A stretch of DNA of 64,000 bases from a phage. The position numbers and the translations under genes were made by a program. Within the stretch, counting starts at the first letter, position 1; every line of letters starts with the position of its first letter. Shown here one piece after another: positions 35,290 to 55,571 of this stretch. The notes beneath the pieces are model-generated. The model saw nothing but the letters and a program-made list of their open reading frames with translations. It searched no databases and was not told the DNA's origin. The stretch is from assembly GCA_036253055.1 (NCBI GenBank), contig GCA_036253055.1_4124.1. One strand, given 5' to 3'.

Positions 35290-35440
35290 TACTGGCATTA
35301 CATCCACCAGCAGATAGTTACTCACCGTTATTAACTATCTTATAGATACTTCTCTGCACCCTGTGGGCTAGTTTTTGTCTATGCGTATATAATAGCAAAG
35401 GGACTGACCGGAGTCAATCCCTTTTTTTTATTCTTTTTTG
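35290..35440 (-). repeat. Intergenic repeat copy A (conserved element + intrinsic terminator)
   Basis: ~150-nt unit shared with copies at 37.2, 40.1 and 44.1 kb; terminator GGGACTGACcggaGTCAATCCC + T-run. Confidence 0.6.
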
Positions 35441-36062: not shown

Positions 36063-36287
36063 TTAGATTAGATTATTGATGCCGTTGATGGTAGACTCGC
36101 TTTCTTCTTTCTCCCATTGGCGGTAATACTTCCATGCTTCATGATAGGTGGCGATCAGTTCATCTTTTTGATCCTGAGTACATGCCAGTACTGAATCACT
36201 GTAAGCGGTGTTATAGATAGAATCAAATGATTTCTTCTCTTCTGCCAGGGTAGCTACTTCCCGCATCAGTTCATCAAAGTTAGCCAT
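36063..36287 (-). CDS. Hypothetical protein (74 aa)
   Basis: SD AAGGAG; cassette upstream. Confidence 0.6.
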   Translation of the reverse strand: MANFDELMREVATLAEEKKSFDSIYNTAYSDSVLACTQDQKDELIATYHEAWKYYRQWEKEESESTINGINNLI

Positions 36288-36306
36288 TTTAGTACTCCTT
36301 ATTAGT

Positions 36307-36363
36307 GGGGGAGGATATCTCCCCCTATGTAAAACATTATACTTTGTTTTACTTACAATGCAA
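36307..36363 (-). promoter_or_regulatory. Class-1 cassette (TTGCAT-N16-TATAAT + hairpin GGGGGAGgatatCTCCCCC)
   Basis: Read on minus strand. Confidence 0.6.
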
Positions 36364-36370
36364 GTACTTT

Positions 36371-36562
36371 TTAAATTTTATTTCCGATATAGTCCGGCCT
36401 GTTCTTTTCGGTCATACGCTTAAGCATTTTTTGCATATGGCTTATTGCTTGTAGTGTATCCTCTTCCAGCGATGAATCAAGATAATCAGGATCATTCTTC
36501 ACCTTACAATGATTATGATAGCGTAGTACTGCCAGTACTTTTTTAACTTCTTCTACTGTCAT
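36371..36562 (-). CDS. Hypothetical protein (63 aa)
   Basis: ATGA overlap with upstream gene, co-transcribed. Confidence 0.5.
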   Translation of the reverse strand: MTVEEVKKVLAVLRYHNHCKVKNDPDYLDSSLEEDTLQAISHMQKMLKRMTEKNRPDYIGNKI

Positions 36563-36831
36563 AATAAGTATTCCACTTCGTTTGCTTTCAGGTTAGTATC
36601 AATCATCAGTGGTTTTTTGTAGTCCACAAAACGATTAGTTTTCTCGATAGCGAAGCCCATATAATCCAGTTTGCTTACAGTACATTCATTCTTAAAAACT
36701 TCTTTCGCTGCATTGATGGCTGATTCAATTGATAACCGCCCATCTAAATTAATGTTACCAAATGATCCACCAGCAGAAGTAGGATTACCGTTCATATCTT
36801 TAATAATCATAGTAGCGGAGTAGCTGGACAT
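36559..36831 (-). CDS. Hypothetical protein (90 aa)
   Basis: SD AAAGGAAA; cassette upstream. Confidence 0.6.
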   Translation of the reverse strand: MSSYSATMIIKDMNGNPTSAGGSFGNINLDGRLSIESAINAAKEVFKNECTVSKLDYMGFAIEKTNRFVDYKKPLMIDTNLKANEVEYLL

Positions 36832-36852
36832 AATTTTGTTTCCTTTTATTGG

Positions 36853-36912
36853 TGGGGAGAGCTATTCTCCCCTTGATGTAAACTATTATACAGTACTGAT
36901 ATACTTTGTCAA
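36853..36912 (-). promoter_or_regulatory. Class-1 cassette (TTGACA-N16-TATAAT + AGTTTACAT + hairpin GGGGAGAgctaTTCTCCCC)
   Basis: Read on minus strand. Confidence 0.6.
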
Positions 36913-36915
36913 TAC

Positions 36916-37137
36916 TTAATTACGTTTAAAATGATATGTACCGTTATCATCCTGTACGCCCCATACTGATTTACCATCAACACCAGTGAAGCCGGATTGT
37001 AATTCAATATGGAAACCGTTAGCATCAACGACGAAAACTTTTTTATTTTCATCCCGATAGCATTGATATTCTTCACCTGCTTTAAATGCTGCATCATTCA
37101 GAAGATTTGAAGCGTGAACGCAGGTCATAGTAGTCAT
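36916..37137 (-). CDS. Hypothetical protein (73 aa)
   Basis: Start moved to ATG 37137 (MTTMTC, SD AAAGGAA); track N-terminus MFYIERG... is translated cassette. Confidence 0.6.
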   Translation of the reverse strand: MTTMTCVHASNLLNDAAFKAGEEYQCYRDENKKVFVVDANGFHIELQSGFTGVDGKSVWGVQDDNGTYHFKRN

Positions 37138-37160
37138 CGTCTTGATTCCTTTTAGTACCA

Positions 37161-37220
37161 GGGAGAACCATTTCCCCCTCTCGATATAAAACATTATACG
37201 CTCATTGAGATAGTTTGCAA
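37161..37220 (-). promoter_or_regulatory. Class-1 cassette (TTGCAA-N16-TATAAT + hairpin)
   Basis: Read on minus strand. Confidence 0.6.
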
Positions 37221-37224
37221 GTAC

Positions 37225-37360
37225 TTTTTATAAAATAGTTTTCAGTACTGAATACTTATATAATAGATACACTTCCGCACCCTATGGGTCAGTGAGTTAT
37301 CTCTCAATGAATATATAATAGCAAAGGGACTGACTGGAGTCAATCCCTTTTTTAATCTTT
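37225..37360 (-). repeat. Intergenic repeat copy B (conserved element + intrinsic terminator)
   Basis: Element CCGCACCCTATGGGTCAGTG; terminator GGGACTGACtggaGTCAATCCC + T6. Confidence 0.6.
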
Positions 37361-37361
37361 T

Positions 37362-37946
37362 TTATCGTGTTATAGTTATCGCGTTAACATCACGTTTTTT
37401 ATAGTACTGATTCCAGATATTGCGGGTTAAACCGTAATCAAGTACTTTAATCAAGCCGTTGCGATCCTGGCCGATATTCTGTTTTCTGATATCTCTTATC
37501 GTTAGTGTGGATAATGTATCATCAACGTGATTGAGAGCATCAGCGAAATGGTGATGGCGTTCTACCGTATTACGTTTAATATTGTACTTTAACTCATTGC
37601 ACGCGTTTACATGCTTTACACTGCCTTTGCTTGCAGTACTCAAACGATCCATAACAATAAACAGATTATCAGGATCGCATAAATGCATATGCACTTTAGC
37701 AAAGTACTGTTTAAGGTGCGGACGGTCATAATCTAAAAAATTCCATACCTTACATTCAGTTTCATTTTGTTCTACACCCGCATCACAATTCGCGACCTTA
37801 ATCACTAACCGATCATTTAAAGCGAATACAATACGGGAAGAACCCGCACCGACGATCTCCAGTCCAGCTAACCGACAAGCTGAAAGGATCTCTTTGTTGG
37901 TTTCCATTGCATGAAGTGAACGGATGAATTTAGTATAGTTACGCAT
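37362..37946 (-). CDS. Putative protein-kinase-like protein (194 aa)
   Basis: Gly-rich loop VGAGSSRIVF, beta3 Lys in LVIKVA, catalytic-loop-like DIRKQN, DFG-like DYG; SD AAGGAG; start at ATG 37946. Confidence 0.5.
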   Translation of the reverse strand: MRNYTKFIRSLHAMETNKEILSACRLAGLEIVGAGSSRIVFALNDRLVIKVANCDAGVEQNETECKVWNFLDYDRPHLKQYFAKVHMHLCDPDNLFIVMDRLSTASKGSVKHVNACNELKYNIKRNTVERHHHFADALNHVDDTLSTLTIRDIRKQNIGQDRNGLIKVLDYGLTRNIWNQYYKKRDVNAITITR

Positions 37947-37977
37947 TGTGTTGACTCCTTGAGTTAATGAAACTATA

Positions 37978-45041: not shown

Positions 45042-45188
45042 CTATTTTTTAGATTTACGCAAACTTTCTACCATCTCAGGAGTAAGGCCAGGCGGGTAGG
45101 AAACCACTTCATCAACGAAACGTAAAGGGAATACCCCAGCGAAAGGTGAACGTGCTTTCTTAGTATTACTCTTTTTTGATGCTTTCAT
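45042..45188 (-). CDS. Small basic protein (48 aa); paralog of 39497-39631
   Basis: Not in track; MKASKKSNTKKARSPFAG...DEVV; SD AAGGAA. Confidence 0.45.
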   Translation of the reverse strand: MKASKKSNTKKARSPFAGVFPLRFVDEVVSYPPGLTPEMVESLRKSKK

Positions 45189-45207
45189 TTCATATTCCTT
45201 AATTAGT

Positions 45208-45267
45208 GGGGAGAATCATTTCTCCCCTTCATGTAAAACATTATACGCGTTTAAAAACTAATTGCAA
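45208..45267 (-). promoter_or_regulatory. Class-1 cassette (TTGCAA-N16-TATAAT + hairpin GGGGAGAAatgaTTCTCCCC)
   Basis: Read on minus strand. Confidence 0.6.
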
Positions 45268-45467
45268 GTACTATTTGAAAGTAAATGCTCATACGCTGCA
45301 TTAACTACGTTTTCAATAACCGACTGTACAGAAAGATCCCCCACGTCCTGGCTATAGTAGAAATCGCTTACAGTGGTGTCATCGTATGCAAATACTTTAC
45401 CAGGTACTGCATCAATCACATACATATTAACCTTTAAGATGTCGATCTTATCCTGTACAGTAAGCAT
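45258..45467 (-). CDS. Hypothetical protein (69 aa)
   Basis: SD AAAGGT. Confidence 0.5.
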   Translation of the reverse strand: MLTVQDKIDILKVNMYVIDAVPGKVFAYDDTTVSDFYYSQDVGDLSVQSVIENVVNAAYEHLLSNSTCN

Positions 45468-45472
45468 ATTAA

Positions 45473-45745
45473 TTAACCTTTTAAGTACTGGCTTAAGTAG
45501 TCTTGTTGATCTTCGGTGATTGCAGCCATCTTCCCTAGTACTGGATTGATGATATAATCCCCTGTAACGTCCTGTAACGCATTCTCAGGCGGTTTAACGG
45601 CTGGGGTAGCCATAGCCATTGCCTGGACTTGTTCGACGCTGTAACGCTCATAAAGGCGGCATTCTTCCGGTGTTAACATAGCATCAGTACGCTTCATCGG
45701 TTTAATGATGCTTTCGATCTCATTCAGTACTTGATTAACGTTCAT
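45473..45745 (-). CDS. Hypothetical protein (90 aa)
   Basis: SD GGGGA. Confidence 0.55.
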   Translation of the reverse strand: MNVNQVLNEIESIIKPMKRTDAMLTPEECRLYERYSVEQVQAMAMATPAVKPPENALQDVTGDYIINPVLGKMAAITEDQQDYLSQYLKG

Positions 45746-45796
45746 GGTATAATCCCCAATATAAGCGGCCTAAATCGACCGCTAACGATGTTTTGA

Positions 45797-46066
45797 TTAA
45801 TAGGTGTATGGTTGACGCTCAAACAATGAATAGACGTTATACGCCCCGCTTATGGGCTTCGCTGGTAAATCAATTTTATATTGTTCACGCTTAAAGATAA
45901 TAAAACGGCAATTGTTTTTAACATCAAAATTGATTGAACGTTCCAGGAGTTTACCATCGTGCACAAATACAAGATAACCGCTTGGTACTTGTTTTGTAGA
46001 ACTGGTTGCAACCATAGACCGACGAACATGTGTACCTGCATCGATTAAAGTACTGATATTTTTCAT
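45797..46066 (-). CDS. Hypothetical protein (89 aa)
   Basis: SD AAGAGGAT; 7-bp inverted repeat ATGCAGA-N15-TCTGCAT upstream. Confidence 0.55.
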   Translation of the reverse strand: MKNISTLIDAGTHVRRSMVATSSTKQVPSGYLVFVHDGKLLERSINFDVKNNCRFIIFKREQYKIDLPAKPISGAYNVYSLFERQPYTY

Positions 46067-46146
46067 TTTACTATCCTCTTAAGTTGATTTAATTTCTTTC
46101 TCCTATGCAGACACTATATCAAAGTATCTGCATAAAGTAAAGCTAA

Positions 46147-46470
46147 TTAAAGATCTTTTTTGCGTTTAACATTCTGTACAGTACAATGCAACGGGATATT
46201 AAGATCATTGCACAAACGATAGAGGGAGGTTTCAACAGTATCAAGCCCGTCTACTGATTCCTTTAAGAGTGATACCGCCGTTTGTTGATATGCATCCTCA
46301 TAGCCATAAGTAAATGATTCAACCGCCAGATCATTCAAGCCGTTATCCAGTTCAACGCTTACATGACAAGAATGATAAGTATTGCCATATGAATCAGTCC
46401 AACGTTTACCGTCAACATTGATTGCATGGATTGCAGCCAGGGAAACGGTGTTGATGATAGTTTTAGCCAT
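46147..46470 (-). CDS. Hypothetical protein (107 aa); paralog of 39086-39409
   Basis: SD AAGGAA; class-2 promoter upstream. Confidence 0.6.
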   Translation of the reverse strand: MAKTIINTVSLAAIHAINVDGKRWTDSYGNTYHSCHVSVELDNGLNDLAVESFTYGYEDAYQQTAVSLLKESVDGLDTVETSLYRLCNDLNIPLHCTVQNVKRKKDL

Positions 46471-46561
46471 TTTAGTATTCCTTAAATTAATATGTGTCGT
46501 CTTGATAAAATCTATTATGCCAGTACTATCAAACTATGTCAATAGTACTGTGATAATATTT

Positions 46562-46774
46562 TTACTTACTTTCTTTCGCTGCTTTATATGTTGCCACTGC
46601 CATAACCACATCAGCACGAACAAAGTTTTTAACCGTGTCACTGTAATAATTGATCGCATCATCTATATCTGCGAACGTCCGATACATACCGCACCAAGAT
46701 ACTTTATAACCTTCTTTCACTTCTACCAGTTTAACGATAGTCTTGTTAACTTTGATTTTAGTAATGATAGCCAT
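46562..46774 (-). CDS. MAII-family small protein (70 aa)
   Basis: Start moved to ATG 46774 (MAIITKIK, SD TGAGGAAAC); track start MVLP is the cassette hairpin. Confidence 0.55.
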   Translation of the reverse strand: MAIITKIKVNKTIVKLVEVKEGYKVSWCGMYRTFADIDDAINYYSDTVKNFVRADVVMAVATYKAAKESK

Positions 46775-46794
46775 TTTAGTTTCCTCATTATCAG

Positions 46795-46852
46795 GGAGAA
46801 CCATTTCTCCCCTTGATGTAATGTATTATACTTTATTCGATTTACTTTGCAA
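46795..46852 (-). promoter_or_regulatory. Class-1 cassette (TTGCAA-N16-TATAAT + hairpin)
   Basis: Read on minus strand. Confidence 0.6.
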
Positions 46853-46861
46853 GTACTTTTT

Positions 46862-47089
46862 TTAATTTAATTCATCCAGGCAAAGGATACGCTCAACGCC
46901 CAAATCAGTTAAACTAATCGACGGCACTTGATAGGTTTCAATGTATGCTACACTTGCCCACTGACCGAACTCATTAACGGCCCAGGTATTCATTGCATTT
47001 TGCAATTCCGCACCTGCCTTGTTAGTAATGACTGCAACTACTTGTTCGTTGCCAGTAGTACCAGATACGCGAGTAATGATAATAGCCAT
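46862..47089 (-). CDS. MAII-family small protein (75 aa)
   Basis: Start moved to ATG 47089 (MAIIITRV, SD AAAGGAA). Confidence 0.55.
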   Translation of the reverse strand: MAIIITRVSGTTGNEQVVAVITNKAGAELQNAMNTWAVNEFGQWASVAYIETYQVPSISLTDLGVERILCLDELN

Positions 47090-47112
47090 TGTTTTGATTC
47101 CTTTGATTTGGA

Positions 47113-47172
47113 AGGAGAACCGTTTCCCCCTCTCGATGTAAAACATTATACGCTAATCTCTTAATCGTGCAA
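47113..47172 (-). promoter_or_regulatory. Class-1 cassette (TTGCAC-N16-TATAAT + hairpin)
   Basis: Read on minus strand. Confidence 0.55.
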
Positions 47173-47216
47173 GTACTTTTTATTACTTTTTGCAAAATAC
47201 TTTAAACGCTCTCAAT

Positions 47217-47307
47217 CGCATTCTAACGACCTTAACGCCACCAGCTAGGGCGATGTATCAGATAATCAGTTTAATGCGTTAGAATCGATTCTAGGCGGTG
47301 CTGGTGG
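47217..47307. repeat. Interleaved inverted repeats (CGCATTCTAACG / CGTTAGAATCG and CCACCAGC / GCTGGTGG)
   Basis: Two inverted-repeat pairs arranged A-B...A'-B' between a terminator and the next promoter. Confidence 0.5.
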
Positions 47308-47324
47308 ACTGGAATACTACAGAC

Positions 47325-47352
47325 ACAAAAAAGCCCACTGTTTAAGGTGGGC
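47325..47352 (-). terminator. Intrinsic terminator (GCCCACcttaaacaGTGGGC + T6)
   Basis: Hairpin then TTTTTT on minus strand, 20 nt after stop at 47375. Confidence 0.7.
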
Positions 47353-47374
47353 TAGTGATTCAGTACTTTAATTG

Positions 47375-47857
47375 TTATGCTTCAACTTTGCGATGAGCTT
47401 CGATCCATTCCTCGCGAGTCATACCGCTTTCTTTGATAGCGTCCAGTACTACCGCAATGCAGTTACCGCGTACAGGAATCAAATGTTCTTCCCCGTTATC
47501 AAGGACAACAGTAACACGTTCTTGAATCCATTTTTTAGGCTTAGATTCCGGCTTATCTTCACCGTACTTAACCGCCAGGGCTTTATGTGCCATTTCAATA
47601 ACCACTTCCAGATCTAAACCAGACACCGCCGCCTGAATACTTTCTATTGTTGCTTGCAGTTCTGCTTCACGGGCTTTTTTCTGTTCTTCCAGTTCTGCTA
47701 CCTTTTTGGCTTGTAGTTCTTTCGCTTCACTGTAAGCAATGTTAAAATTGTTGCGTACTGCTTTCATGGTATCATTATCCAGGTCAGCCAGCAATTCAGC
47801 AGCAATCACAGTATCGTTAGAAATCAGTGCTTTCAGAAATGATTTTACATTAGCCAT
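47375..47857 (-). CDS. Hypothetical coiled-coil protein (160 aa)
   Basis: Start moved to ATG 47857 (MANVKSF, SD GAGGAT); Lys/Glu-rich heptad-like segment; strong terminator downstream. Confidence 0.6.
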   Translation of the reverse strand: MANVKSFLKALISNDTVIAAELLADLDNDTMKAVRNNFNIAYSEAKELQAKKVAELEEQKKAREAELQATIESIQAAVSGLDLEVVIEMAHKALAVKYGEDKPESKPKKWIQERVTVVLDNGEEHLIPVRGNCIAVVLDAIKESGMTREEWIEAHRKVEA

Positions 47858-48049
47858 TTTATAAATCCTCAATTAAAGTTTAAGTTAGTTTATCAAAGTT
47901 TGTTTGACGTGTCCAGTTTTTCATTCGACTTACTGGCGGTCTACTTAATGTTCCCCGTCTTGATGTAATACATTCTACGCTTTTCCCTGGTAATGTCAAC
48001 TACTTTTTTAAAACTATTTTCAAAGTATACCAGTACTACGATACTACAA

Positions 48050-48078
48050 AAACAAAAAAGCCCACTGTATAAGTGGGC
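48050..48078 (-). terminator. Intrinsic terminator (GCCCACttatacaGTGGGC + T6)
   Basis: Near-duplicate of terminator at 47325; follows stop at 48097. Confidence 0.7.
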
Positions 48079-48096
48079 TAGTGATTCAGTACTATA

Positions 48097-48396
48097 TTAT
48101 AAACAATTAATTACGCCAGTGAATGTAACTTTCTCTGTATCCATTACAGTAACCGAACCGCGTTTACTTTTTGCATCGTAATAGATGGTCGTGCTACCCT
48201 GATCATCTTCTTCATGGTACGGGCCATTAGCAAACATTGCAGGGGCCAGTTCCAGGGATTTGGTAACGATCTCAGCCGTTTCCTCGTTAGTCATTGCAAC
48301 AGTGCACTGAATGAATTTTTCTTTCTGTACATCAACGGAAGCGTTAACAGCGAAAGAGGAAACAGATAAAGCCAGGGCGATGATTGCAGTTTTCAT
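48097..48396 (-). CDS. Putative secreted/periplasmic small protein (99 aa)
   Basis: N-terminal signal-peptide-like MKTAIIALALSVSSFAVNA; SD AAAGGAT; own promoter and terminator. Confidence 0.6.
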   Translation of the reverse strand: MKTAIIALALSVSSFAVNASVDVQKEKFIQCTVAMTNEETAEIVTKSLELAPAMFANGPYHEEDDQGSTTIYYDAKSKRGSVTVMDTEKVTFTGVINCL

Positions 48397-48418
48397 TTGT
48401 ATATCCTTTGTTAGTACT

Positions 48419-48474
48419 AGGGAGTATTCCCGATTAGATGTAAAACATTATACGCGTTTAAAAACTATTATCAA
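48419..48474 (-). promoter_or_regulatory. Class-1 cassette (TTGATA-N16-TATAAT + GTTTTACAT)
   Basis: Read on minus strand; weak hairpin. Confidence 0.5.
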
Positions 48475-48507
48475 GTACTTTAATATAAAAGTATTTGAAA
48501 AAAAGTC

Positions 48508-48640
48508 TTGACAACTGCATCCAGTACTGGCATAATATCTACATAAAGACGAGATAGTCACTAACCCACAGGGTGCATAGATCCGTCTATTAAATGATTC
48601 AGTACTGCAAAATAAAGGGGATCGTTTGATCCCCCTGATT
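48508..48640 (+). ncRNA. Candidate plus-strand small RNA (class-2 promoter + CACTAACCCACAGGGTGCA element + terminator hairpin)
   Basis: TTGACA 48508-13, CATAAT 48531-36, element 48559-77, hairpin GGGGATCgtttGATCCCC 48617-34; no ORF; opposite to all local genes. Confidence 0.35.
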
Positions 48641-48641
48641 A

Positions 48642-48863
48642 TTACTTAGTAAGATATAAACAAAAATCACCTTTCTTTGATACTCCGCAAGTGTAACGCG
48701 ATGAATAGTTAGAAACGTCTTGTACTTCTGCAATGACGAGCGTATCATCATTTAACTCATCGCAAAAACATACTGCGGGATCTTCTACGCCGATATTGTC
48801 GGCATGTTCCCGCATAGATTTAACCAGTGCTTCAAGCTGGGAAAGAGTAGTGATATTAGCCAT
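48642..48863 (-). CDS. Hypothetical protein (73 aa)
   Basis: SD AAGGAG; cassette upstream. Confidence 0.6.
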   Translation of the reverse strand: MANITTLSQLEALVKSMREHADNIGVEDPAVCFCDELNDDTLVIAEVQDVSNYSSRYTCGVSKKGDFCLYLTK

Positions 48864-48882
48864 TGTAAAACTCCTTATTAGT

Positions 48883-48941
48883 GGGGAGAACCATTTCCCC
48901 CTTGATGTAAACTATTATATAGTACTGGAAACTATTTGCAA
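48883..48941 (-). promoter_or_regulatory. Class-1 cassette (TTGCAA-N16-TATAAT + hairpin)
   Basis: Read on minus strand. Confidence 0.6.
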
Positions 48942-48947
48942 GTACTT

Positions 48948-49136
48948 TTAATTAAATTCCATAAAATCATTTTCAACGTGCACAACAATCTGATTATTTT
49001 TAAAGGACGCAGAAAACTCTATACAATCATAAACCGCTTTTTCTGTTACCAGACTATGAGCACCAATCGGATTAATTGGGGATTGAATTGTTTCAATCTC
49101 GTTACCCTGCTCATTTACAATTAAAATATTAAACAT
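48948..49136 (-). CDS. Hypothetical protein (62 aa)
   Basis: SD AGGAG; promoter TTGCAA-N16-TATAAT. Confidence 0.55.
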   Translation of the reverse strand: MFNILIVNEQGNEIETIQSPINPIGAHSLVTEKAVYDCIEFSASFKNNQIVVHVENDFMEFN

Positions 49137-49210
49137 TGTCGTTACTCCTGGATAGTGTTAACTCGATGTAAACAATTATACAGTACTGGAAACTAATTGC
49201 AAGTACTTTT

Positions 49211-49414
49211 TTAATTTAATTGCTTTAAAACAAAATCAAAGACACCACGCACATCATTGATCATCGCCTGGCGGTTAGCAGGTAACGCATCAGGATCGCC
49301 ACTATCCCAGGCATTAATGAAGCCACTTAAATCATGGAATACTTTATTCCGTAACCCGATCAACTGCAATTCTTTTTCTTCAAGCTCTTTGATACGTTCA
49401 ATTAAATCACTCAT
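49211..49414 (-). CDS. Hypothetical protein (67 aa)
   Basis: Start moved to ATG 49414 (MSDLIERIK, SD GAGGAT). Confidence 0.5.
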   Translation of the reverse strand: MSDLIERIKELEEKELQLIGLRNKVFHDLSGFINAWDSGDPDALPANRQAMINDVRGVFDFVLKQLN

Positions 49415-49431
49415 TAGATAATCCTCAGTAC

Positions 49432-49716
49432 TCAATTGTAAGATCCACATCGTTCGCAGTAGTGTTCATCTTCCTCATCTTCTACCACTTGCCCGATGAA
49501 ATGATCTACTTTCGCTTTCAGGTTATTATAATCGTTTTCTACTTCCTGTAAACGTTCCTGGTAGTATTCCAGGGCTTCAACAAATGCAGCTTCCTCTGAT
49601 TTTGCTTGCATCGATAAATTCATCCCGCGTGTTTCATCATATAGCCAAAAACCATCGGTGCATTCAGTTATAGATAACGTGTTAGTCAGTACTTTACTAT
49701 TAATTACTTTGCTCAT
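49432..49716 (-). CDS. Hypothetical protein (94 aa), Cys-containing C-terminus
   Basis: SD GAGGAT; C-terminal HYCERCGSYN. Confidence 0.55.
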   Translation of the reverse strand: MSKVINSKVLTNTLSITECTDGFWLYDETRGMNLSMQAKSEEAAFVEALEYYQERLQEVENDYNNLKAKVDHFIGQVVEDEEDEHYCERCGSYN

Positions 49717-49735
49717 TAGATAATCCTCATTAAAG

Positions 49736-49794
49736 GCGGGAACTATTCCCGCTCTCGATATAAAGTATTATACGTTAATCTAATTACTTTGCAA
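49736..49794 (-). promoter_or_regulatory. Class-1 cassette (TTGCAA-N16-TATAAT + hairpin GCGGGAAtagTTCCCGC)
   Basis: Read on minus strand. Confidence 0.6.
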
Positions 49795-49801
49795 GTACTT
49801 T

Positions 49802-50039
49802 TTAGTGCTTTTTATAAAACATCTCAGCGGTGATATTTTTACCCGTTGGTTGTACTTTATCCAGGATCTTTTGGTGTGCACTACGCCCGAAAGAATAAGA
49901 ACCGTAAACCGTTAGCCAGTAGTCGCCATTTTGGTTTACATGTACCGCACAATAAGGAACGCCCCGCGAATCGTCACCAATGAAGTGTGATACTGTACCC
50001 GTTACGTTTGGCGTTGTAGTTTTGATTTGTTCGATCATT
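49802..50039 (-). CDS. Hypothetical protein (78 aa)
   Basis: Start moved to ATG 50039 (MIEQIK, SD AGGAG) downstream of hairpin GGCGGGGAAtggTTCCCGCC. Confidence 0.5.
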
Positions 50040-50096
50040 TCTCTTACTCCTGGGATATAGGCGGGAACCATTCCCCGCCATTGATTCAGTACTGAA

Positions 50097-50708
50097 TTAA
50101 TATTCGATAGATTCTACTACATCGTCGATAACGTTAAATTGATATTCGTTACCCTCAATCAGTCCTACAATGTTTTCAGTAGTAAACTGGTCTTCATAAG
50201 CATTTTCTAAATCACGGTACAGCTTACAAGATAATTCTCGGATAGTATCAGTCAGTAAGTTTTCCAGATCCTCAGCCAATGCAGCCTGTTTTACAGTTAA
50301 ATCAGTGTAGCGAGTATCAACGCAACCGCCTACCGTGTTTTCGTGAGCGTAGCGTGATTGGGAACGTTCTACACTCATTTCCAAATCATCTTCGTTCAAC
50401 AGGTGACGGATGGAACGATATTTCGTTAACGCCTTAACCTTGCGTAAAAACTTCTCAGCGTCAACGTGGTCAGTACTGATTGATGCACCGTCACCTTGCG
50501 ACCAAAAACCACTGTATTGCAATTCAGCTTCATCTATGCCGTATTCTGGCAGTACTGTTTCTTTATAGTATTCCAGTACTGATTCAGCAAAGAAATTATC
50601 CTCACTTGCACGTTCCCGATCCCGAACCAGTTCGATAGCCGCCGCTTGTTGTTCTGCGTTCAGTTCAGAAAAATCCATAACGAAAGTAGTAGTAGTGATA
50701 GTTTTCAT
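50097..50708 (-). CDS. Hypothetical acidic protein (203 aa)
   Basis: SD TGAGGGT; tandem promoters with structured element X copy 2 between them. Confidence 0.65.
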   Translation of the reverse strand: MKTITTTTFVMDFSELNAEQQAAAIELVRDRERASEDNFFAESVLEYYKETVLPEYGIDEAELQYSGFWSQGDGASISTDHVDAEKFLRKVKALTKYRSIRHLLNEDDLEMSVERSQSRYAHENTVGGCVDTRYTDLTVKQAALAEDLENLLTDTIRELSCKLYRDLENAYEDQFTTENIVGLIEGNEYQFNVIDDVVESIEY

Positions 50709-50778
50709 TTTGTAACCCTCATTCAGTAGTTGATGTAAGTATTATACGCTTTTAAAAACAATTGTCAAACTATTTTAT

Positions 50779-50886
50779 CAGGGGAGTTTTTCGTGTGCCT
50801 TACTCCTGGGCTACTTAACGGGAAGTTACTTATTTCGTTCCCCGTCCTGATGTAAAACATTATACGCCTTTAAACATAGTTTGCAA
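50779..50886 (-). ncRNA. Candidate structured leader/sRNA element X (copy 2)
   Basis: About 90% identical to 39968-40074; frame-disrupting differences argue against a peptide. Confidence 0.35.
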
Positions 50887-50931
50887 GTACTTTTTGAAAA
50901 TAGTTTTTATCTCTTTCATATAGATACATTC

Positions 50932-51001
50932 CCGCACCCTATGGGCTATCGCCTTGTGTCCGGCTTGTAAGTATTATCTCACTAAGCCGGATAACGGTCA
51001 A
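50932..51001 (-). promoter_or_regulatory. Class-2-like promoter (TTGACC..TAATAC) + conserved CCCATAGGGTGCGGG element + hairpin CCGGCTT-N17-AAGCCGG
   Basis: Same promoter-to-element arrangement as 42498-42567. Confidence 0.4.
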
Positions 51002-51007
51002 GTACTT

Positions 51008-51274
51008 TTATTCAAGTACTGCAATCTTTTTAGTACTGTACACAGTAACGCGGTTGCCCTTGCGGTCGTGCTTTATTTCTACCACGCGACGCGATACACT
51101 ATCAGGACGCTTTAAAGCAGATAGCCAGTACTGAATTGATCGGGCTGTACTTTGCTTTACTACGGCCCAACGTTTACCACGTTCAGATTGTACGCCCATA
51201 TCTTTAAACGTTGCCCCGTCCTGGCGTGCTGCAATCCGAGCTAGTTCACGCGTCGCAAAATATGTAATAGTCAT
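51008..51274 (-). CDS. Hypothetical protein (88 aa); paralog of 38591-38986
   Basis: Start moved to ATG 51274 (MTITYFATREL, SD AGGGGT). Confidence 0.55.
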   Translation of the reverse strand: MTITYFATRELARIAARQDGATFKDMGVQSERGKRWAVVKQSTARSIQYWLSALKRPDSVSRRVVEIKHDRKGNRVTVYSTKKIAVLE

Positions 51275-51357
51275 GCTGTTACCCCTATCGTTGATGTACA
51301 AAAAGAACTTTATTATAAAGTACTATCACCGTGCAATAGTACTTTTAATCTATTCTC

Positions 51358-51597
51358 TTACATTCCAACCATCGCCGCACGGATCGCAGTAGTACTATAC
51401 TTAAAGCCGTCCGGTGTTTTATCTTGTCCAGTCTGTTCTAAAAATAGCATCATATGACGGGCCGCATCATTACGATTAGTGTTAGCGGCAATAAAGTCCT
51501 GGGCCAACCGGTATAATGATTCGTCGTTATTAATCCAAAGGCTTACATTCCATTGAGTTTTGTTTTTGTGTCCTAAGAACATTTTTGATTTAGCCAT
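51358..51597 (-). CDS. Hypothetical protein (79 aa)
   Basis: Start moved to ATG 51597 (MAKSKMF, SD AAGAGGAT). Confidence 0.55.
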   Translation of the reverse strand: MAKSKMFLGHKNKTQWNVSLWINNDESLYRLAQDFIAANTNRNDAARHMMLFLEQTGQDKTPDGFKYSTTAIRAAMVGM

Positions 51598-51618
51598 TTT
51601 TAAATCCTCTTTATTATA

Positions 51619-51677
51619 GTGGGGAACTATTCCCCACCTGATGTAAAACATTATACGCTTTTAAACTTAGTTTGCAA
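51619..51677 (-). promoter_or_regulatory. Class-1 cassette (TTGCAA-N16-TATAAT + hairpin GTGGGGAAtagTTCCCCAC)
   Basis: Read on minus strand. Confidence 0.65.
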
Positions 51678-51691
51678 GTACTTTATTAAAC

Positions 51692-52054
51692 TTATTCGTA
51701 AATCTTGCCACTGTCAGCCCATACCAGGAAACGAGGCATATTATCCCATGCATCTTGTTTTAAGTTTAAGCCGTGTAATACTTCTGTACTTTCCATTCCT
51801 GGTACTGGCTTGCTATACACTGCAAACATTTCGCCCATGTACTGATAAGCCATCGTTAAATCAGTCTGGATCATCTTATGGATCATTGCATCCAGCATTG
51901 CAGTAGCGGCATACTGTTCACGCTTAAGCGGCAGCATTGCAATCAATTCCCGATAAGCTGCAATGTGAATCCGTACAGTCTCAGCGGGAAGATCTTTCAT
52001 CTCTTCACGGAAAGAAACCAGGTTAAGCATGATAGTATTGATTTGAGTCGCCAT
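51692..52054 (-). CDS. Hypothetical protein (120 aa)
   Basis: Start moved to ATG 52054 (MATQINT); first gene of the middle module. Confidence 0.55.
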   Translation of the reverse strand: MATQINTIMLNLVSFREEMKDLPAETVRIHIAAYRELIAMLPLKREQYAATAMLDAMIHKMIQTDLTMAYQYMGEMFAVYSKPVPGMESTEVLHGLNLKQDAWDNMPRFLVWADSGKIYE

Positions 52055-52077
52055 CGTTTTAATCTCTTTTAAAGTGT

Positions 52078-52137
52078 AGCGGGAAGTGTTCCCGCTCTCG
52101 ATGTAAAACATTCTACACCTTTCCCAATACTTTGCAA
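52078..52137 (-). promoter_or_regulatory. Class-1 cassette (TTGCAA-N16-TAGAAT + hairpin AGCGGGAAcacTTCCCGCT)
   Basis: Read on minus strand; most upstream cassette of the module. Confidence 0.6.
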
Positions 52138-52879
52138 GTACTTTCTACAAATACTTTTAAAATAGTTTTCTTTCTATATAGGGGAACTATCTTTCAGTAC
52201 TGCAACCATCCAGGGGAACTATCTTTCTATATAGTAGTACTATGATTCAGTACTGAATCAATCCACCAAATCATCCCGATACCCCGTAAAACGGCCTCAG
52301 ACGCATTCTAACGCATTAATACACCTAAGCTATACATTTGCACCATTCCAATCATTCCAGGGCTTTACAGGCCGTTTAAACGCGTTAAATTATTTTCAAT
52401 TATTTTGTTTTTAGCTATTGACTCAGTACTAAAAAAGCGTATAATTACTACATAGACGCGAGAAAGCGGATACCCCAGGGGGTGGGAAGATCCGTCCAAA
52501 ATTCAAGATATAAAAAAAGGATACACTCCCGCACCCTAGCAGGTTAACGCACTTTCTCAGTACTGAATTATAGTACCATAGTCCGGCCCAGGATGGCAAG
52601 CAAATTAATTAAAACTTTTTTCATCCAGGGTATTGCTTTATTTTTCCAGTACTGTATAATAGTTCCATCAAGTCGAGAAAGACTCAAGCCCACCGGGTGC
52701 ATAGTTACGCCCAAAATTCAGTACTGAAAAAATTTTTAAAAATATCCGTCCAGGCCGTTGACATTGCCCCCAGTTTATAAGATAATGATTCCAGATTCAG
52801 AAAAATCTAACTCCAGATACTGCGGGGAAACTATCCCCACGCGGTAGGGGAACTATTGGAAAAAACAAAATAAAATTTT

Positions 52880-53040
52880 GATTTAGCCGTCTATACTTCC
52901 AGACGTGTAACCATCTAGCCGTTTAGCCGTCCAAACGTCTAGCAATCCAGCCATCCAGAAATCTAGCCGTTTAGCCGTCTAGATGGATAGCCATCTTTAC
53001 TTCCAGACTTCTGGAGGGCTAGACATATCTACGTCCAAAA
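52880..53040. repeat. GC-richer block of short direct repeats (TAGCCGTTTAGCCGTC x2, CCATCCAG, TCCAGAC) with small hairpins
   Basis: Visible direct repeats; AGATGGatagCCATCT and CCAGActTCTGG palindromes. Confidence 0.5.
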
Positions 53041-53193
53041 TCCACCCAGGGTAACTACGCCCAAAATCCGTCAGTACTATACCATAGATCTATCTTTTGA
53101 AAGGGAGTATTCAGTACTGTCATCATAGCCCTCACTATGTTACCCTAGGAGGATGAAGACTATCATGTAGTACTGAATACTGTTAGAGGGAAT

Positions 53194-53213
53194 CCACCAG
53201 CACAAGCTGGTGG
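53194..53213. repeat. Perfect palindrome CCACCAGCacaaGCTGGTGG
   Basis: 8-bp arms; same CCACCAGC motif recurs at 47.24 kb, 35.30 kb and 40.12 kb. Confidence 0.6.
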
Positions 53214-53700
53214 CATAATGCTTTAGATTAAAATCAGTACTGACACCATTCTGTTAATATCAGTACTGTTATTACGATTTTCATATGAGGTTCAAAAAGA
53301 TGTACCACCACAGGAGGAACTATCTTTTCTGTACTGTCTCACGACAGGAGGTAGAGTAAATGAATTGTTCGCAGCAACTCATCACCCTATGTAGAACATT
53401 ATACAGTACTGAATCATAATGTCAATAGCTTTCTTTCATTATTCAGTACTGAAATCGTATAATCTGTATCGCTACAAAACTCATTATATCCCACAAATCC
53501 TATATGTCCCAACGTAAATTTCAACTTTCGAAGATCCAACTTTTATTTCATAGGTACTCCAAAATTTTTAGGATCGAGATTTAGGATGGAGTACTAACCA
53601 ACTTTTTGCTGGAGCCTCAAGGGGTAATTGAATTTTACCCCGAAGGGTAAAAGGGTAATTGAAATTAAGGTGAAAGTAATAATTCAGTACTAATCATTGC

Positions 53701-53729
53701 GTGATTACTTTTGATTACATTTGATGTAA
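53701..53729. repeat. Iteron cluster 1: TGATTAC-like repeats at exact 10-bp spacing (x3)
   Basis: TGATTACTTT TGATTACATT TGATGTAATT. Confidence 0.55.
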
Positions 53730-53867
53730 TTTGCAAAATGGAAAAGGAGCTTGGAAACTACAAAGTACGGCAGACTTCCTCTGCCTACTTAGTGGCATAT
53801 CAGTACTGCTACGTTCTTGATTAAACGTGAACATTCCTGTACTCTAGTACTCACTACTGATCACTAC

Positions 53868-53929
53868 AGTGATTATAAATGATTACTTAAATGTTTATAT
53901 ATGATTACTTATGACTACCTATGATTACG
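53868..53929. repeat. Iteron cluster 2: ATGATTAC(TT) repeats (x5, 10/22-bp spacing)
   Basis: gtgATTATaaATGATTACTT...ATGATTACTTATGACTACCTATGATTACgg. Confidence 0.55.
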
Positions 53930-53978
53930 GGGTTTAGCCTGGGGAGAATCCTAGTGATCGCATTTGTCCAGGCTGAAT

Positions 53979-54001
53979 TTTAACATATGCAACATATGTT
54001 A
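53979..54001. repeat. Perfect 10-bp-arm palindrome TTAACATATGcaaCATATGTTAA
   Basis: Directly downstream of the last family-C gene; possible operator or terminator. Confidence 0.55.
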
Positions 54002-54044
54002 AAGCCTGTATAATGCTTCCACTACGGAGCTTCCCCTAGCTATA

Positions 54045-54236
54045 TTACTTCCTATATATAATCATTAAGATATAGTAGTACTGATTATACTGTACATTCT
54101 CTTTAATATTATAAGGGTCTATAGCAATCTCGGTACATCTGTTAAATGCATATCTATTAAATGCCAGTGGAATTATAGATCTAATCCATACTTGTTCATT
54201 TTCTTTTAGTTTACTTATATAGAAGTTTTTATACAT
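54045..54236 (-). CDS. Family-C paralog (~60 aa)
   Basis: MYKNFYISKL...YYYILMIIYRK. Confidence 0.55.
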   Translation of the reverse strand: MYKNFYISKLKENEQVWIRSIIPLAFNRYAFNRCTEIAIDPYNIKENVQYNQYYYILMIIYRK

Positions 54237-54251
54237 AGTATTCTCTATTAA

Positions 54252-54434
54252 TTAATATGATAGTACTAGTGTTAGTACTGAGCACAATTGTTCTTTGTAG
54301 TTCTTAGGGTATATAGAATCTTTTATGCACTCATTGAAGTGCCATAGGTATAATCTTGGGTCGCATTCTTTATATATTCTTACGGGGACGAATGTTAGTT
54401 TTCTTATATAGAATTCTTTATGTTCTTTATTCAT
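54252..54434 (-). CDS. Family-C paralog
   Basis: MNKEHKEFYIRKL...LTLVLSY. Confidence 0.55.
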   Translation of the reverse strand: MNKEHKEFYIRKLTFVPVRIYKECDPRLYLWHFNECIKDSIYPKNYKEQLCSVLTLVLSY

Positions 54435-54439
54435 ATTAG

Positions 54440-54625
54440 TTAGTGTCTGTATATAAGTAATAGTAAGAATACGTACTGCACATCTTCATCTTTAGTATTG
54501 AGTACTGTACGTATTGCGTCATTAAACAAGAATATAGTACTTGGGTCATGAGAATTTAAAGGGGTTCTGGGTACGGCATGTTTGTAGTTCCCTTTAACAA
54601 ATTGTGTGTAGTATTCTCTATGCAT
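54440..54625 (-). CDS. Family-C paralog
   Basis: MHREYYTQF...FLLLLIYRH. Confidence 0.6.
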   Translation of the reverse strand: MHREYYTQFVKGNYKHAVPRTPLNSHDPSTIFLFNDAIRTVLNTKDEDVQYVFLLLLIYRH

Positions 54626-54626
54626 A

Positions 54627-54812
54627 TTAGTACCTATATATTAGGGCGAGAATGTAGTACAATTCATATGGAATGTAATTTGGGGTGATCGCACACTGTG
54701 TATGGTAAATGAATTGTTCGGTATTTTTCTTATCCTTGATATCTATTGGGATTAGTGGTATAAGCATTTGGGAGTTTAGATCCAGATGGCTTAAGTAGAA
54801 TTCTTTATGCAT
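54627..54812 (-). CDS. Family-C paralog
   Basis: MHKEFYLSHL...YILALIYRY. Confidence 0.6.
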   Translation of the reverse strand: MHKEFYLSHLDLNSQMLIPLIPIDIKDKKNTEQFIYHTQCAITPNYIPYELYYILALIYRY

Positions 54813-54821
54813 ATTGTTCTC

Positions 54822-55010
54822 TTAGAATACGAAAGCTAGGTACAGGGTATGATACAGTACTCGATGGTAGCTGTCAAAATCTAGTATACATGCTTTAGTG
54901 CACATAGTAAAATACACTTTATCATTTTGTGCATTGATACCGCGAGGTTTATCTAATAGATTAGTTCTGAGGTACATTGGGAAATATTTTGTGTAGTATT
55001 CTTTATGCAT
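54822..55010 (-). CDS. Family-C paralog
   Basis: Start moved to internal ATG (MHKEYYTKYF); ...YHTLYLAFVF. Confidence 0.5.
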   Translation of the reverse strand: MHKEYYTKYFPMYLRTNLLDKPRGINAQNDKVYFTMCTKACILDFDSYHRVLYHTLYLAFVF

Positions 55011-55011
55011 G

Positions 55012-55194
55012 TTAGTACCTGAATATAAGTAGGATAGTGTTATATAGCTGGTCATAACTACTACTATTTTCTATACTTCGTTCTATGCAGTTATTGAATC
55101 CCAGTACTGCCAAATCGTTATCCAGAGGGACTTTATATCTGGCGTAGTGTTCAAAAATGCTGGGGAGAAATTGTGTGTAGTATTCTTTGTGCAT
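55012..55194 (-). CDS. Family-C paralog
   Basis: MHKEYYTQFLP...NTILLIFRY. Confidence 0.6.
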   Translation of the reverse strand: MHKEYYTQFLPSIFEHYARYKVPLDNDLAVLGFNNCIERSIENSSSYDQLYNTILLIFRY

Positions 55195-55195
55195 A

Positions 55196-55381
55196 TTAGT
55201 ACCTATATATTAGTAAAAGGATGTGATACAGTACTCGATTATAGTCTTCAATATATATCGAGGATTTAGTGCACTGAATGAAGTAGTCTTTTTCGTAGTT
55301 TTTTTCTATACCCAATGGTTCTGTTGGTACAAGGTGTTGGAGATACATTGGGAGTTTCTCTATGTAGTATTCTTTATGCAT
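55196..55381 (-). CDS. Family-C paralog
   Basis: MHKEYYIEKLPMYL...HILLLIYRY. Confidence 0.6.
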   Translation of the reverse strand: MHKEYYIEKLPMYLQHLVPTEPLGIEKNYEKDYFIQCTKSSIYIEDYNRVLYHILLLIYRY

Positions 55382-55382
55382 G

Positions 55383-55571
55383 TTAGTACTTAAATGTTAG
55401 GGCGAGGATGTAATACAGTTTATATGTTCTATCCTCATACATTAGGGTGTACTTAGTACATTCCTGGAACATTGTTTTTGCGTCATCTTTTATGCCCAAT
55501 GCAACGTTTGGTATATGGCTCTGTAGATACATTGGGAGTTTCTCTATGTAGTATTCTTTGTGGTTATTCAT
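55383..55571 (-). CDS. Family-C paralog
   Basis: MNNHKEYYIEKLPMYL...YILALTFKY. Confidence 0.6.
   Translation of the reverse strand: MNNHKEYYIEKLPMYLQSHIPNVALGIKDDAKTMFQECTKYTLMYEDRTYKLYYILALTFKY

Follow-up and report, generated by a model that had tools for sequence, protein, structure and literature searches.

A promoter-linked structured RNA module family in the terminal-repeat early region of Rak2-like jumbo phages, and a member predicted to be a stand-alone non-coding RNA gene

Introduction

What is encoded by an intergenic stretch in which a near-consensus promoter points against every gene around it? The locus considered here occupies positions 48508-48640 of a 64,000-nucleotide stretch of phage DNA (hereafter the window), and a sequence-only reading had proposed it as an antisense-orientation small RNA gene with a product of about 90 nt. 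Comparison with related phages indicates that the spot is very probably a real non-coding RNA gene of about 98 bases, and that it is a flipped copy belonging to a family of about ten modules per genome, each a promoter with a folded RNA, in a 21-kb terminal repeat. Within Rfam and the literature searched, the family appears to be previously undescribed. The early programme of Rak2-like phages is essentially uncharted, with hundreds of ORFans, and the family offers a concrete handle on that programme. The question then becomes what such an RNA would do: act by itself, act on the polymerase that makes it, pair with other transcripts, or be the by-product of a DNA element.

Results

The locus lies in the early terminal-repeat region of a jumbo phage

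By its sequence, the window is part of a 121Q-like Asteriusvirus jumbo phage, as the 501 bases around the locus share 97.8% identity with Escherichia phage 121Q; for some 35 further Asteriusvirus jumbo phages, with genomes of 320-385 kb, the identity is about 86%. The 141-base unit itself reaches further, with 77-80% identity in the Klebsiella Alcyoneusvirus phages RaK2, K64-1, Muenster and KP13-7 and partial matches in Salmonella phages Munch and 7t3 and Klebsiella phage fENko-Kae01. In the Muenster record the orthologue falls within the annotated direct terminal repeat (1-20,030), and in that of vB_Ec-M-J the unit (5,523-5,645) falls within a direct terminal repeat of 1-21,525; for Asteriusvirus fEgEco12, restriction digestion confirms a repeat of about 21 kb (PMC13070987). 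Positioned by offset from the coordinates in these relatives' records, a terminal repeat of about 21 kb would cover roughly 33-54.5 kb of the window, with the flagged locus inside.

This repeat region holds early, ORFan-rich genes and many intrinsic terminators. The genes on either side of the locus (48097-48396 and 48642-48863) are both on the minus strand, and so are all the neighbours, as had been noticed before. The proteins encoded nearby belong to PHROGs families with function unassigned, and the only Pfam match among them is DUF1033, in the gene at 49432-49716. Chi sites, iteron-like repeats and a GC-skew switch at about 54 kb are also found in the region. A scan of the window for tRNA and tmRNA genes returned none.

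Non-coding RNAs have been described in the direct terminal repeat of a distant relative from the same jumbo-phage clade, the Pseudomonas phage PA5oct, where ncRNA1 and ncRNA2, of 236 and 451 nt, are highly transcribed by RNA-seq and were reported without similarity to GenBank sequences except isolate MIJ3 (PMC7318152). They are longer than the RNA predicted here, and the matches to the unit included no PA5oct or MIJ3 record.

A promoter, a folded module and a shared terminator

The elements of the locus are collected in Table 1. The promoter is where the sequence-only reading had put it, scores 11/12 together with the TG of an extended -10, and has an A-run upstream. Single promoter-like matches are at background in this A/T-rich DNA (11 found vs 9.4 expected in 3 kb). 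Taken together with the repeated module behind it, however, the promoter goes far beyond what chance would give: at the same phased position, 65 of 71 family members have a promoter of at least 10/12, against 3.6% of control slices. The CAT that provides the predicted start is aligned in nearly all of the 64-73 units.

Table 1. Elements of the flagged locus and paralogous units, in window coordinates
Feature	Position	Strand	Details
Sigma70-type promoter	48508..48536	+	-35 TTGACA 48508-48513; 17-bp spacer containing CCAGTACTGG; -10 CATAAT 48531-48536
Extended -10, TGgCATAAT	48528-48536	+	TGg at 48528-48530
Predicted transcription start	A48543	+	7 nt after the -10; from spacing and as the A of the conserved CAT
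Covariance-model match, flagged copy	48539..48598	+	62.5 bits, E~1e-13
P1 hairpin	48548..48559	+	GAC 48548-50, loop GAGATA, GTC 48557-59
19-mer CACTAACCCACAGGGTGCA	48559-48577	+	
Conserved core CTAACCCACAGGGTGC	48561..48576	+	contains P2
P2 hairpin	within 48561..48576	+	ACCC 48564-67, loop ACA, GGGT (GGGU in RNA) 48571-74
3' tail ATCCGTCTAT (also given as AUCCGUCUAU)	48581..48590	+	variant of the family tail GTGTATCTAT; position and sequence conserved
A/U-rich spacer	48591..48616	+	contains palindrome CAGTACTG 48600-07; TTCAGTACTG kept in orthologues
Shared terminator hairpin	48615..48644	both	GGGGATC 48617-23, gttt, GATCCCC 48628-34
Paralogous unit, 'linear' class	35334..35388	-	with genes; -35 inside terminator hairpin
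Paralogous unit	37255..37314	-	with genes
Paralogous unit	40122..40176	-	with genes
Paralogous unit	42477..42536	-	closest paralogue of the flagged copy; same promoter type
Paralogous unit	44141..44200	-	with genes
Paralogous unit	50912..50972	-	with genes
Paralogous unit, weak	52448-52507	+	non-coding terminal region
Paralogous unit, weak	52509-52571	-	non-coding terminal region
Paralogous unit	52663-52722	+	non-coding terminal region

The terminator hairpin, the only G-C hairpin of the flagged copy, is found at the place proposed earlier, 75-92 nt downstream of the predicted start. Its service to the convergent gene 48642-48863 is borne out by a scan of both strands, in which the minus strand is the better side (9 pairs, then TTTATTTTG), and the same hairpin is annotated as a terminator in the G17 and Muenster records. 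On the plus strand 7 pairs are followed by the U-poor CTGATTATTA, and because of this tail termination may leak; in this phage plus-strand termination is only plausible. A good T tract, TTTGTTTTAT, follows the hairpin on the plus side in RaK2 and K64-1; the window lacks one. With the start at A48543 and the end at about 48640, the predicted RNA is about 98 nt long, somewhat above the 90 nt first given.

The region does not appear to encode a protein. As had been claimed, 48540-48640 contains no plus-strand ORF with a Shine-Dalgarno sequence. A small ORF starting from ATG 48594 was rejected, the Klebsiella phage orthologues having no ATG there, and a minus-strand CDS placed over the unit in the SD-6_S16 record only was judged spurious, as it overlaps the promoter of the neighbouring gene. 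Apart from this one doubtful CDS, the phage records examined carry no annotation of the unit.

Nine orthologues of the flagged copy, from two genera (Asteriusvirus and Alcyoneusvirus) and from phages of E. coli to those of Klebsiella, keep its orientation against the genes, and in all nine the predicted RNA is 97-99 nt long. Invariant throughout are TTGAC, CAGTACTGG, CATAAT, CAT, the core, TCTATT, AGTACT and the GGGG...CCCC ends of the terminator stem. Changes between orthologues can be compensatory: P1 switches from GAC/GTC to GCC/GGC, and the terminator stem of G17 reads GGGGAG/CTCCCC. The proposal of a small RNA gene is thereby partly supported, in the sense of a stand-alone plus-strand unit, backed by the orientation and length kept in the nine orthologues.

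A pairing antisense role is not favored by the layout

The word antisense suits the orientation of the unit and should not be taken to imply a mechanism of pairing. The predicted RNA overlaps the convergent mRNA only in the terminator hairpin of about 30 nt (the stop codon is at 48642-44 and the hairpin ends at 48634), a hairpin that lies in the 3' UTR; complementarity to the coding part of that mRNA is absent unless there is read-through. The well-known comparison is the OOP RNA of phage lambda, a 77-nt antisense RNA convergent with cII, single-copy, with its own sigma70 promoter and an intrinsic terminator, which overlaps about 55 nt of the coding end of cII. The predicted RNA would resemble OOP in being short, in coming from a strong and conserved sigma70 promoter of its own that points towards a gene, and in stopping at an intrinsic terminator, whose stem is conserved although its plus-strand U tract is weak in this phage. 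It differs from OOP in overlapping only the shared hairpin and in being one of about ten paralogous modules.

An RNA that regulates by base pairing, whether OOP-like against gene 48642-48863 or as an Hfq-type trans-acting sRNA on phage or host mRNAs, has therefore to be weighed, and we give it a slim chance. The convergent layout, the short predicted transcript, the A/U-rich stretch and the terminator hairpin all speak for it, as do the 5' leader and linker, which are rich in A-R-N triplets. Of the features expected of an Hfq-type RNA, the A/U-rich spacer and the hairpin are present; a good U tail is seen in RaK2 and K64-1, and the one in the window is poor. However, the complement of the tail, ATAGATAC, is not enriched on the early mRNA strand, its three minus-strand occurrences in the window being about the number due to chance. 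A pairing antisense RNA is unlikely on these two grounds, the overlap confined to the terminator hairpin and the lack of enrichment of the tail complement. Ten near-identical 'seeds' per genome, most of them in 5' leaders, would also be unusual for a base-pairing regulator. A blastn search of the unit against 5,426 E. coli genomes likewise gave no match, although such a search detects similar sequence and not complementary sites; on the same result, mimicry of a host sequence was rejected.

The element is the core of a clade-specific family

At up to three mismatches, the 19-mer occurs six times in the window against 0.00 expected, five times on the minus strand and once, in the flagged copy, on the plus strand, and each copy is preceded, at a distance of about 20 nt, by a strong sigma70 promoter of the same strand. 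The conserved element that had been pointed out is thus real, and what the sequence-only reading missed is that it forms the core of a structured-RNA family of about ten copies, most of which are oriented like the genes and immediately precede an ordinary early promoter. A relaxed pattern of the core finds 8 copies each in the window, G17 and RaK2 and 9 in Munch. The covariance model, built from an alignment of 64 distinct units, finds ten copies in the window, all within 35.3-52.7 kb and none in the other ~42 kb, and nothing beyond these ten at E<0.1. Across 17 sources the model identifies 73 units, and relatives in several genera have 8-10 copies each. A second set adds 46 further units, with loci only from contigs of 305-378 kb or short fragments.

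In IMG/VR, two exact-pattern scans followed by the model as a filter recovered units only in contigs of 305-378 kb, which include RaK2, 121Q, GAP32, CBB and fHe-Yen9-04, or in pieces of 5-109 kb, which probably are partial genomes of the same kind. In complete genomes the exact-pattern matches fall in this one region (7/7 in RaK2, 5/5 in 121Q). Together, the restriction in IMG/VR and the one-region matches indicate that the family is confined to the Rak2-like jumbo phages of Enterobacterales and, within these, to the early region of the terminal repeat. A looser pattern gave about 28 other IMG/VR loci, which the covariance model rejected as chance.

No family in Rfam 15 matched anywhere in the window at the gathering threshold, and at E<=10 on 48530-48650 only noise matches to the terminator hairpin, none to the core, were obtained. 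The motif strings are absent from the relevant papers in the literature searched, and the CBB, Sharanji and fEgEco12 papers cover promoters, terminators or terminal repeats but not this motif; a transcriptome report for an Asteriusvirus or Alcyoneusvirus phage was likewise not found in that literature. Beyond phages, the 16-mer core has 105 matches in 596 Gb of bacterial genomes, against about 277 expected by a rough estimate for a random 16-mer at equal base frequencies, and these were treated as coincidence. Those inspected were mostly a REP-like hairpin repeat and tRNA genes on the reverse strand, in Chloroflexi, and belong to no Rfam family.

P1 covaries in the transcribed sense

Units share the order sigma70 promoter, CAT start, purine-rich 5' segment, P1, CUA(R), P2, GC, linker and tail; the linker, which follows P2 and (U)GC, has six bases, mostly purine, and the tail is usually GUAUCUAU. 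P1 is present in 48 of the 69 distinct units as a helix of 3-5 bp with a loop of 6-8 nt (e.g. AGAUAA, AGAACAA, GAGAAA), and in the other 21 the 5' arm is absent and the segment is linear (CAUAGAAACAA). P2 has the form RCCC-AYN-GGGU, with CCC/GGG throughout the 69 units except for one compensatory CCU/AGG and with a closing pair that is A-U in 34 units and G-U in 34. Its loop of 3-4 nt is variable (ACA, AUA, ACC, ACG, ACU, AUC, AUU, UCAA, UAGA, UUUA).

All four P1 pairs change on both sides, in 18, 11, 26 and 19 cells and with up to six pair types. On the model-guided alignment the covariation of P1 is 0.286 vs 0.131+-0.011 in shuffles, none of 500 being as high, and it falls to 0.068 or less when the partner is slid by 1-3 columns. 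A plain MAFFT alignment, which is not fitted to the structure, gives a P1 signal that also beats every control, and an unbiased scan of all column pairs places P1 pairs at the top (mutual information 1.16 and 0.89) with no other long-range partner. RNAalifold alone recovers P2 and the terminator. Because many of the pairs are G-U, which on the opposite strand would be A-C mismatches, the structure belongs to the transcribed sense, and the pattern would fit only RNA, or single-stranded DNA, of that sense. P2, being invariant, says little on whether structure or sequence is recognized.

Further pairing may exist outside these two hairpins. In the minimum free energy fold the 3' tail of the flagged copy can pair with the 5' AGACG, and no covariation was detected for this pairing. 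Similarly, the 3' UAUCU might form a closing helix or pseudoknot with either the 5' AUAGA or the P1 loop AGAUA, a pairing that was rejected as evidence: the two sides pair in 59-66% of cases vs 54% or less when slid, which is no better than column shuffles, with mutual information of at most 0.19, and the helix is unproven because conservation of both sides explains the pairing equally well.

The strand-specific structure also bears on whether the element could be a double-stranded DNA site, such as the operator of an early repressor downstream of the start or an R-loop origin like oriF/oriG of T4. ACCC-N3-GGGT is an inverted repeat at +20 to +32, and the Chi sites, iteron-like repeats and skew switch of the region could be in keeping with such a site. 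However, half of the copies have a G opposite the symmetric T, a mismatch in a palindromic duplex, the flanks are asymmetric, the module is always oriented with the promoter, and P1 covaries without conservation of sequence. A duplex site is accordingly highly improbable in our judgment.

Orientation and layouts of the units

The core sits at about +18 from the start in a fixed, promoter-proximal position. About 80% of units point with the genes and about 18% face them. Directly behind the tail of gene-directed units comes a gene with an ordinary early promoter, which consists of a UP element, AGTACTTGCAA, 16 bp and TATAAT. In one promoter subfamily, to which the four paralogues at 35334, 37255, 40122 and 44141 belong, the hairpin that terminates the gene block before the unit has A and T runs and includes the -35 (AAAAAAGGGATTGACTccggTCAGTCCCTTT).

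The flagged copy belongs to a second, stand-alone layout and faces the genes. Thirteen of 71 units are of this type and are followed, on the strand of the unit, by a G-C hairpin and a T-rich tail. The stems show no relation in sequence, and in 12 of the 13 a fixed 17-18 nt (once 14) separate the 60-nt module from the start of the hairpin. Gene direction is known for four loci, and in these the stand-alone units face against the genes. A third layout, with two units facing each other about 45 nt apart, is found in G17, 121Q, Munch, CBB and others and at 52448-52571 of the window. For the copies that face the genes, the terminators in RaK2, K64-1, Munch and others have a good T tract on the unit's own strand. 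Inversion together with a phased terminator recurs in several lineages.

Discussion

The function that fits these layouts best is, in our reading, that of an independent early non-coding RNA unit whose module is a platform for protein recognition and acts in trans, and we give this an even chance of being right. Under this scenario, the sigma70 RNA polymerase of the host would start at about A48543 and make a non-coding RNA of about 98 nt, with its end at the hairpin that also terminates the convergent gene. The module would take up the first 50 nt or so: P1, whose pairing is kept while its sequence is free, CUA, P2, UGC, the purine-rich linker and a tail of the GUAUCUAU type. Produced in bulk in the first minutes of infection, the module would be recognized by a phage or host protein, and the flagged copy would act in trans as a decoy or sponge. 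What the sequences show directly is the anatomy of the locus, its membership of the family, a structure tied to the RNA strand, the kept orientation and length, and confinement to one clade and one part of the genome; transcription, plus-strand termination, protein binding and trans action are what we infer.

Two features suggest that the RNA itself is the product: the module is kept in either orientation at the boundaries of gene blocks, and the gene-facing copies are capped by terminators at a fixed distance. As both orientations occupy the site between a terminator and the next promoter, it would be the product rather than the downstream gene that matters, at least for the flipped and capped copies. 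A recognition surface is suggested by the pattern of constraint, since the P2 stem is invariant and CUA/UGC and the tail are conserved and unpaired, while the P2 loop and the sequence of P1 are free. Counting against this reading, most members lack a terminator and continue into the promoter and gene that come next, and this terminator-less majority would fit a role in cis at least as well.

The main rival is such a role in cis, in which the module would act on RNA polymerase in the manner of nut, put or ops. The nut sites of phage lambda (boxA/boxB) and the put sites of HK022 are promoter-proximal elements of nascent RNA, made of hairpins and single-stranded boxes, that occur in more than one operon per phage. 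By analogy, the nascent module might act on the transcription complex like nut/boxB or put, causing processive antitermination or a regulated pause, or, as DNA, the 11-nt P2 hairpin might be read on the non-template strand in an ops-like manner. For the gene-facing copies, a modified polymerase would then read through the hairpin and make antisense RNA across the upstream early genes, for example for shut-off. Such a signal would be expected close to the promoter in a region with many intrinsic terminators, and the core is indeed fixed at about +18 among them; about 80% of copies point with the genes, heading gene blocks just after a terminator, the small hairpins and conserved single-stranded boxes would give an architecture like that of nut and put, and the plus-strand terminator is weak in the window. 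Yet gene-facing copies are conserved together with a terminator at 17-18 nt, which ill fits a signal for ignoring terminators, and each gene is already served by a promoter of its own. No factor resembling N, Q or RfaH was found. Unlike nut and put, to which it has no sequence or Rfam similarity, the module has hairpins much smaller than those of put and copies followed by conserved terminators. On this evidence a cis signal is unlikely.

A different starting point is offered by a type of cassette described from T4-like phages, the promoter-early stem-loop or PeSL (Arbiol et al. 2010, PMC2839356; Comeau et al. 2014, PMC4122927). Like the units described here, PeSLs are repeated intergenic cassettes in ORFan-rich early regions and the best-conserved DNA between related phages; in both, an A/T-rich stretch lies upstream of a near-consensus sigma70 promoter, and the terminator, a G...C stem-loop, is able to overlap the -35. 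The family shares their strong promoters (11/12 with an A-run in the flagged copy, at least 10/12 in 65 of 71 units) and their repetition (ten copies in about 18 kb of small ORFan genes). The published stem-loops take five positions, from upstream of the -35 to just before the start (PMC2839356, PMC4122927); a stem-loop at the promoter is found in four paralogues and not in the flagged copy, whose stem-loop comes 75 nt after the start.

It is accordingly conceivable, if improbable, that the units are DNA cassettes of the PeSL type for regulation and recombination, which insulate gene blocks and shuffle modules, with the plus-strand copy inverted and its RNA a by-product. The subfamily with the -35 inside the terminator hairpin (AAAAAAGGGATTGACTccggTCAGTCCCTTT) matches published PeSL subclasses (PMC2839356, PMC4122927), and the region is ORFan-rich and hyperplastic. 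For PeSLs an association with indels or mini-circles between close relatives would be expected; at one unit site, at about 50.9 kb, the arrangement of the window differs from that of 121Q. When the repeat is aligned between genera by blastn, the aligned segments are mostly modules and promoters, not genes, which makes these the main DNA segments common to the genera. However, PeSLs are defined by promoter and terminator only and lack a conserved transcribed domain, whereas here the promoter is followed by a covarying transcribed domain of about 50 nt after the start, with G-U pairs and compensation in P1. Homogenisation by recombination fails as an explanation because copies within one genome have diverged outside functional positions. 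Some copies, moreover, are inverted with a downstream terminator of their own, a combination of inversion and phased terminator that was acquired in several lineages.

A larger role can tentatively be imagined. Fired from about ten of the strongest immediate-early promoters in the terminal repeat, dedicated structured RNAs with a 5'-triphosphate, both free (about 98 nt) and leader-borne, might be a device of Rak2-like phages for takeover of the host or counter-defence, which is possible though rather less than probable. Their target might be a host RNA-binding protein, a nuclease or an immune sensor, which they would titrate, or else RNA polymerase, which they would reprogramme. If this is true, they would form a class of phage regulatory RNA that is new and confined to the giant phages of enterobacteria. 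The promoters ahead of the modules are the strongest early ones, and the DNA that carries them is likely to be expressed first. The 55-nt module is a defined bait for a protein partner. The family is a candidate for a new Rfam entry and broadens the PeSL idea from promoter/terminator cassettes to cassettes carrying an RNA product. For annotation, it would allow at least 10 intergenic 'gaps' per genome to be labelled in more than 50 sequenced phages.

RNA anti-CRISPRs (Racr), which are solitary repeat units, are likewise small RNAs that phages make from a dedicated promoter; they have a short G-C hairpin and sometimes occur in several copies. Mimicry of a CRISPR repeat was considered for the family and rejected on a comparison by eye with type I-F and I-E repeats, in which agreement with I-F reached about 17 of 26 positions in some copies only, and the register of the stem and the handle of the CRISPR repeat are not conserved across the 69 distinct units.

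The origin of the module may be sought in the ordinary early leaders of the window, which have the same 5' scaffold as the unit. The leader of gene 48642-48863, for example, reads AUCAAG-hairpin-ACUAAUAAGGAG-N8-AUG (the reverse complement of 48864-48945), and the unit begins AUAAAG-P1-ACUAACCC. Given this shared scaffold, the module may have evolved from a normal leader in which the ribosome-binding site and gene were replaced, and P1 may be a generic 5' stabiliser.

Layout of the RNA module and occurrence of its core elsewhere

The 5' end of the structured-RNA module has the same layout as the leader scaffold common to ordinary early genes, as seen at 48864-48945 and 48397-48480 (minus strand) of the window. 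In these leaders an AUC start is followed by a G-C hairpin no more than about 8 nt from the 5' end, then ACUAA(U/C)AA and then the Shine-Dalgarno sequence. An exact match to a 16-mer of the conserved core, CTAACCCACAGGGTGC, also lies within a multi-copy REP-like hairpin repeat, the outer stem of which covaries (NNNNAC...GUNNNN), in four loci (L081, L062, L058, and L040) and about 30 further Chloroflexi/Anaerolineae loci. Some Anaerolineales tRNA genes contain its reverse complement, and no Rfam family was found for the Chloroflexi/Anaerolineae loci. The occurrence of the 16-mer in this group is probably a coincidence.

Palindromes and Chi sites around the units

The AGTACT palindrome is present 256 times in the whole window versus about 45 expected, and CAGTACTG 52 times versus about 2. 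Promoters incorporate the palindrome, as AGTACTTGCAA at the -35 position and as CCAGTACTGGCATAAT in spacers, and it recurs about 10 nt past each unit, that is, each copy of the promoter and RNA module. The palindrome may serve as a site for some regulator.

The Chi sequence GCTGGTGG is likewise in excess, with about 0.2 sites expected and 10 observed, all confined to the terminal-repeat region (35304-53206). Several are directly 3' of units or within promoter spacers. This bias suggests that the linear ends are shielded from RecBCD.

Chi sites of the window and near-consensus Fur boxes of related phages
Feature	Location	Strand	n
Chi GCTGGTGG	35304, 36767, 38175, 40117, 41385, 42846, 47238, 53194	-	8
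Chi GCTGGTGG	47300, 53206	+	2
Near-consensus Fur box	L003 (Salmonella phage Munch) ~7415-7450		
Near-consensus Fur box	L021 ~6070-6100		
Near-consensus Fur box	L005 ~1270-1300		
Near-consensus Fur box	L002 ~22800-22830		

The inferred end of the terminal repeat

Placed by offset, the stretch at 52112-54044 (~1.9 kb) lies where the terminal repeat physically ends. ORFs of at least 45 aa are absent from it except for two short overlapping ones on the minus strand (52429-52714), and it holds three to four units and iteron-like repeats (AGCCGTCTA, CGTCCAAAAT, and CCAGA); its counterpart in the related phage G17 is 19040-20934. Immediately outside the repeat boundary, at 54045-55571, are at least eight tandem minus-strand ORFs of near-equal size (~60 aa each), matched by G17_00056-00069, which suggests a paralogous array. 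The GC skew changes sign at about 54 kb, where the cumulative skew is also at its minimum, and GC content is 0.36-0.41 at 34-54 kb versus 0.29-0.36 elsewhere in the window. Minus-strand ORFs run past this switch to at least ~55.6 kb, and the equivalent G17 genes extend to about 58 kb by offset.

Convergent unit pairs and a local rearrangement

In relatives, a near-consensus Fur box, such as GATAATGATAATCATTT, lies between or adjoining convergent unit pairs; in the window, the best matches to a Fur box were no closer than 4-5 mismatches. Phage 121Q has a convergent pair (826-940 of its retrieved locus, L011) at the site equivalent to 50912-50972, where the window instead has a lone unit followed by an ordinary promoter. 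The two genomes, which are otherwise 94-98% identical, differ here by a local rearrangement involving a unit.
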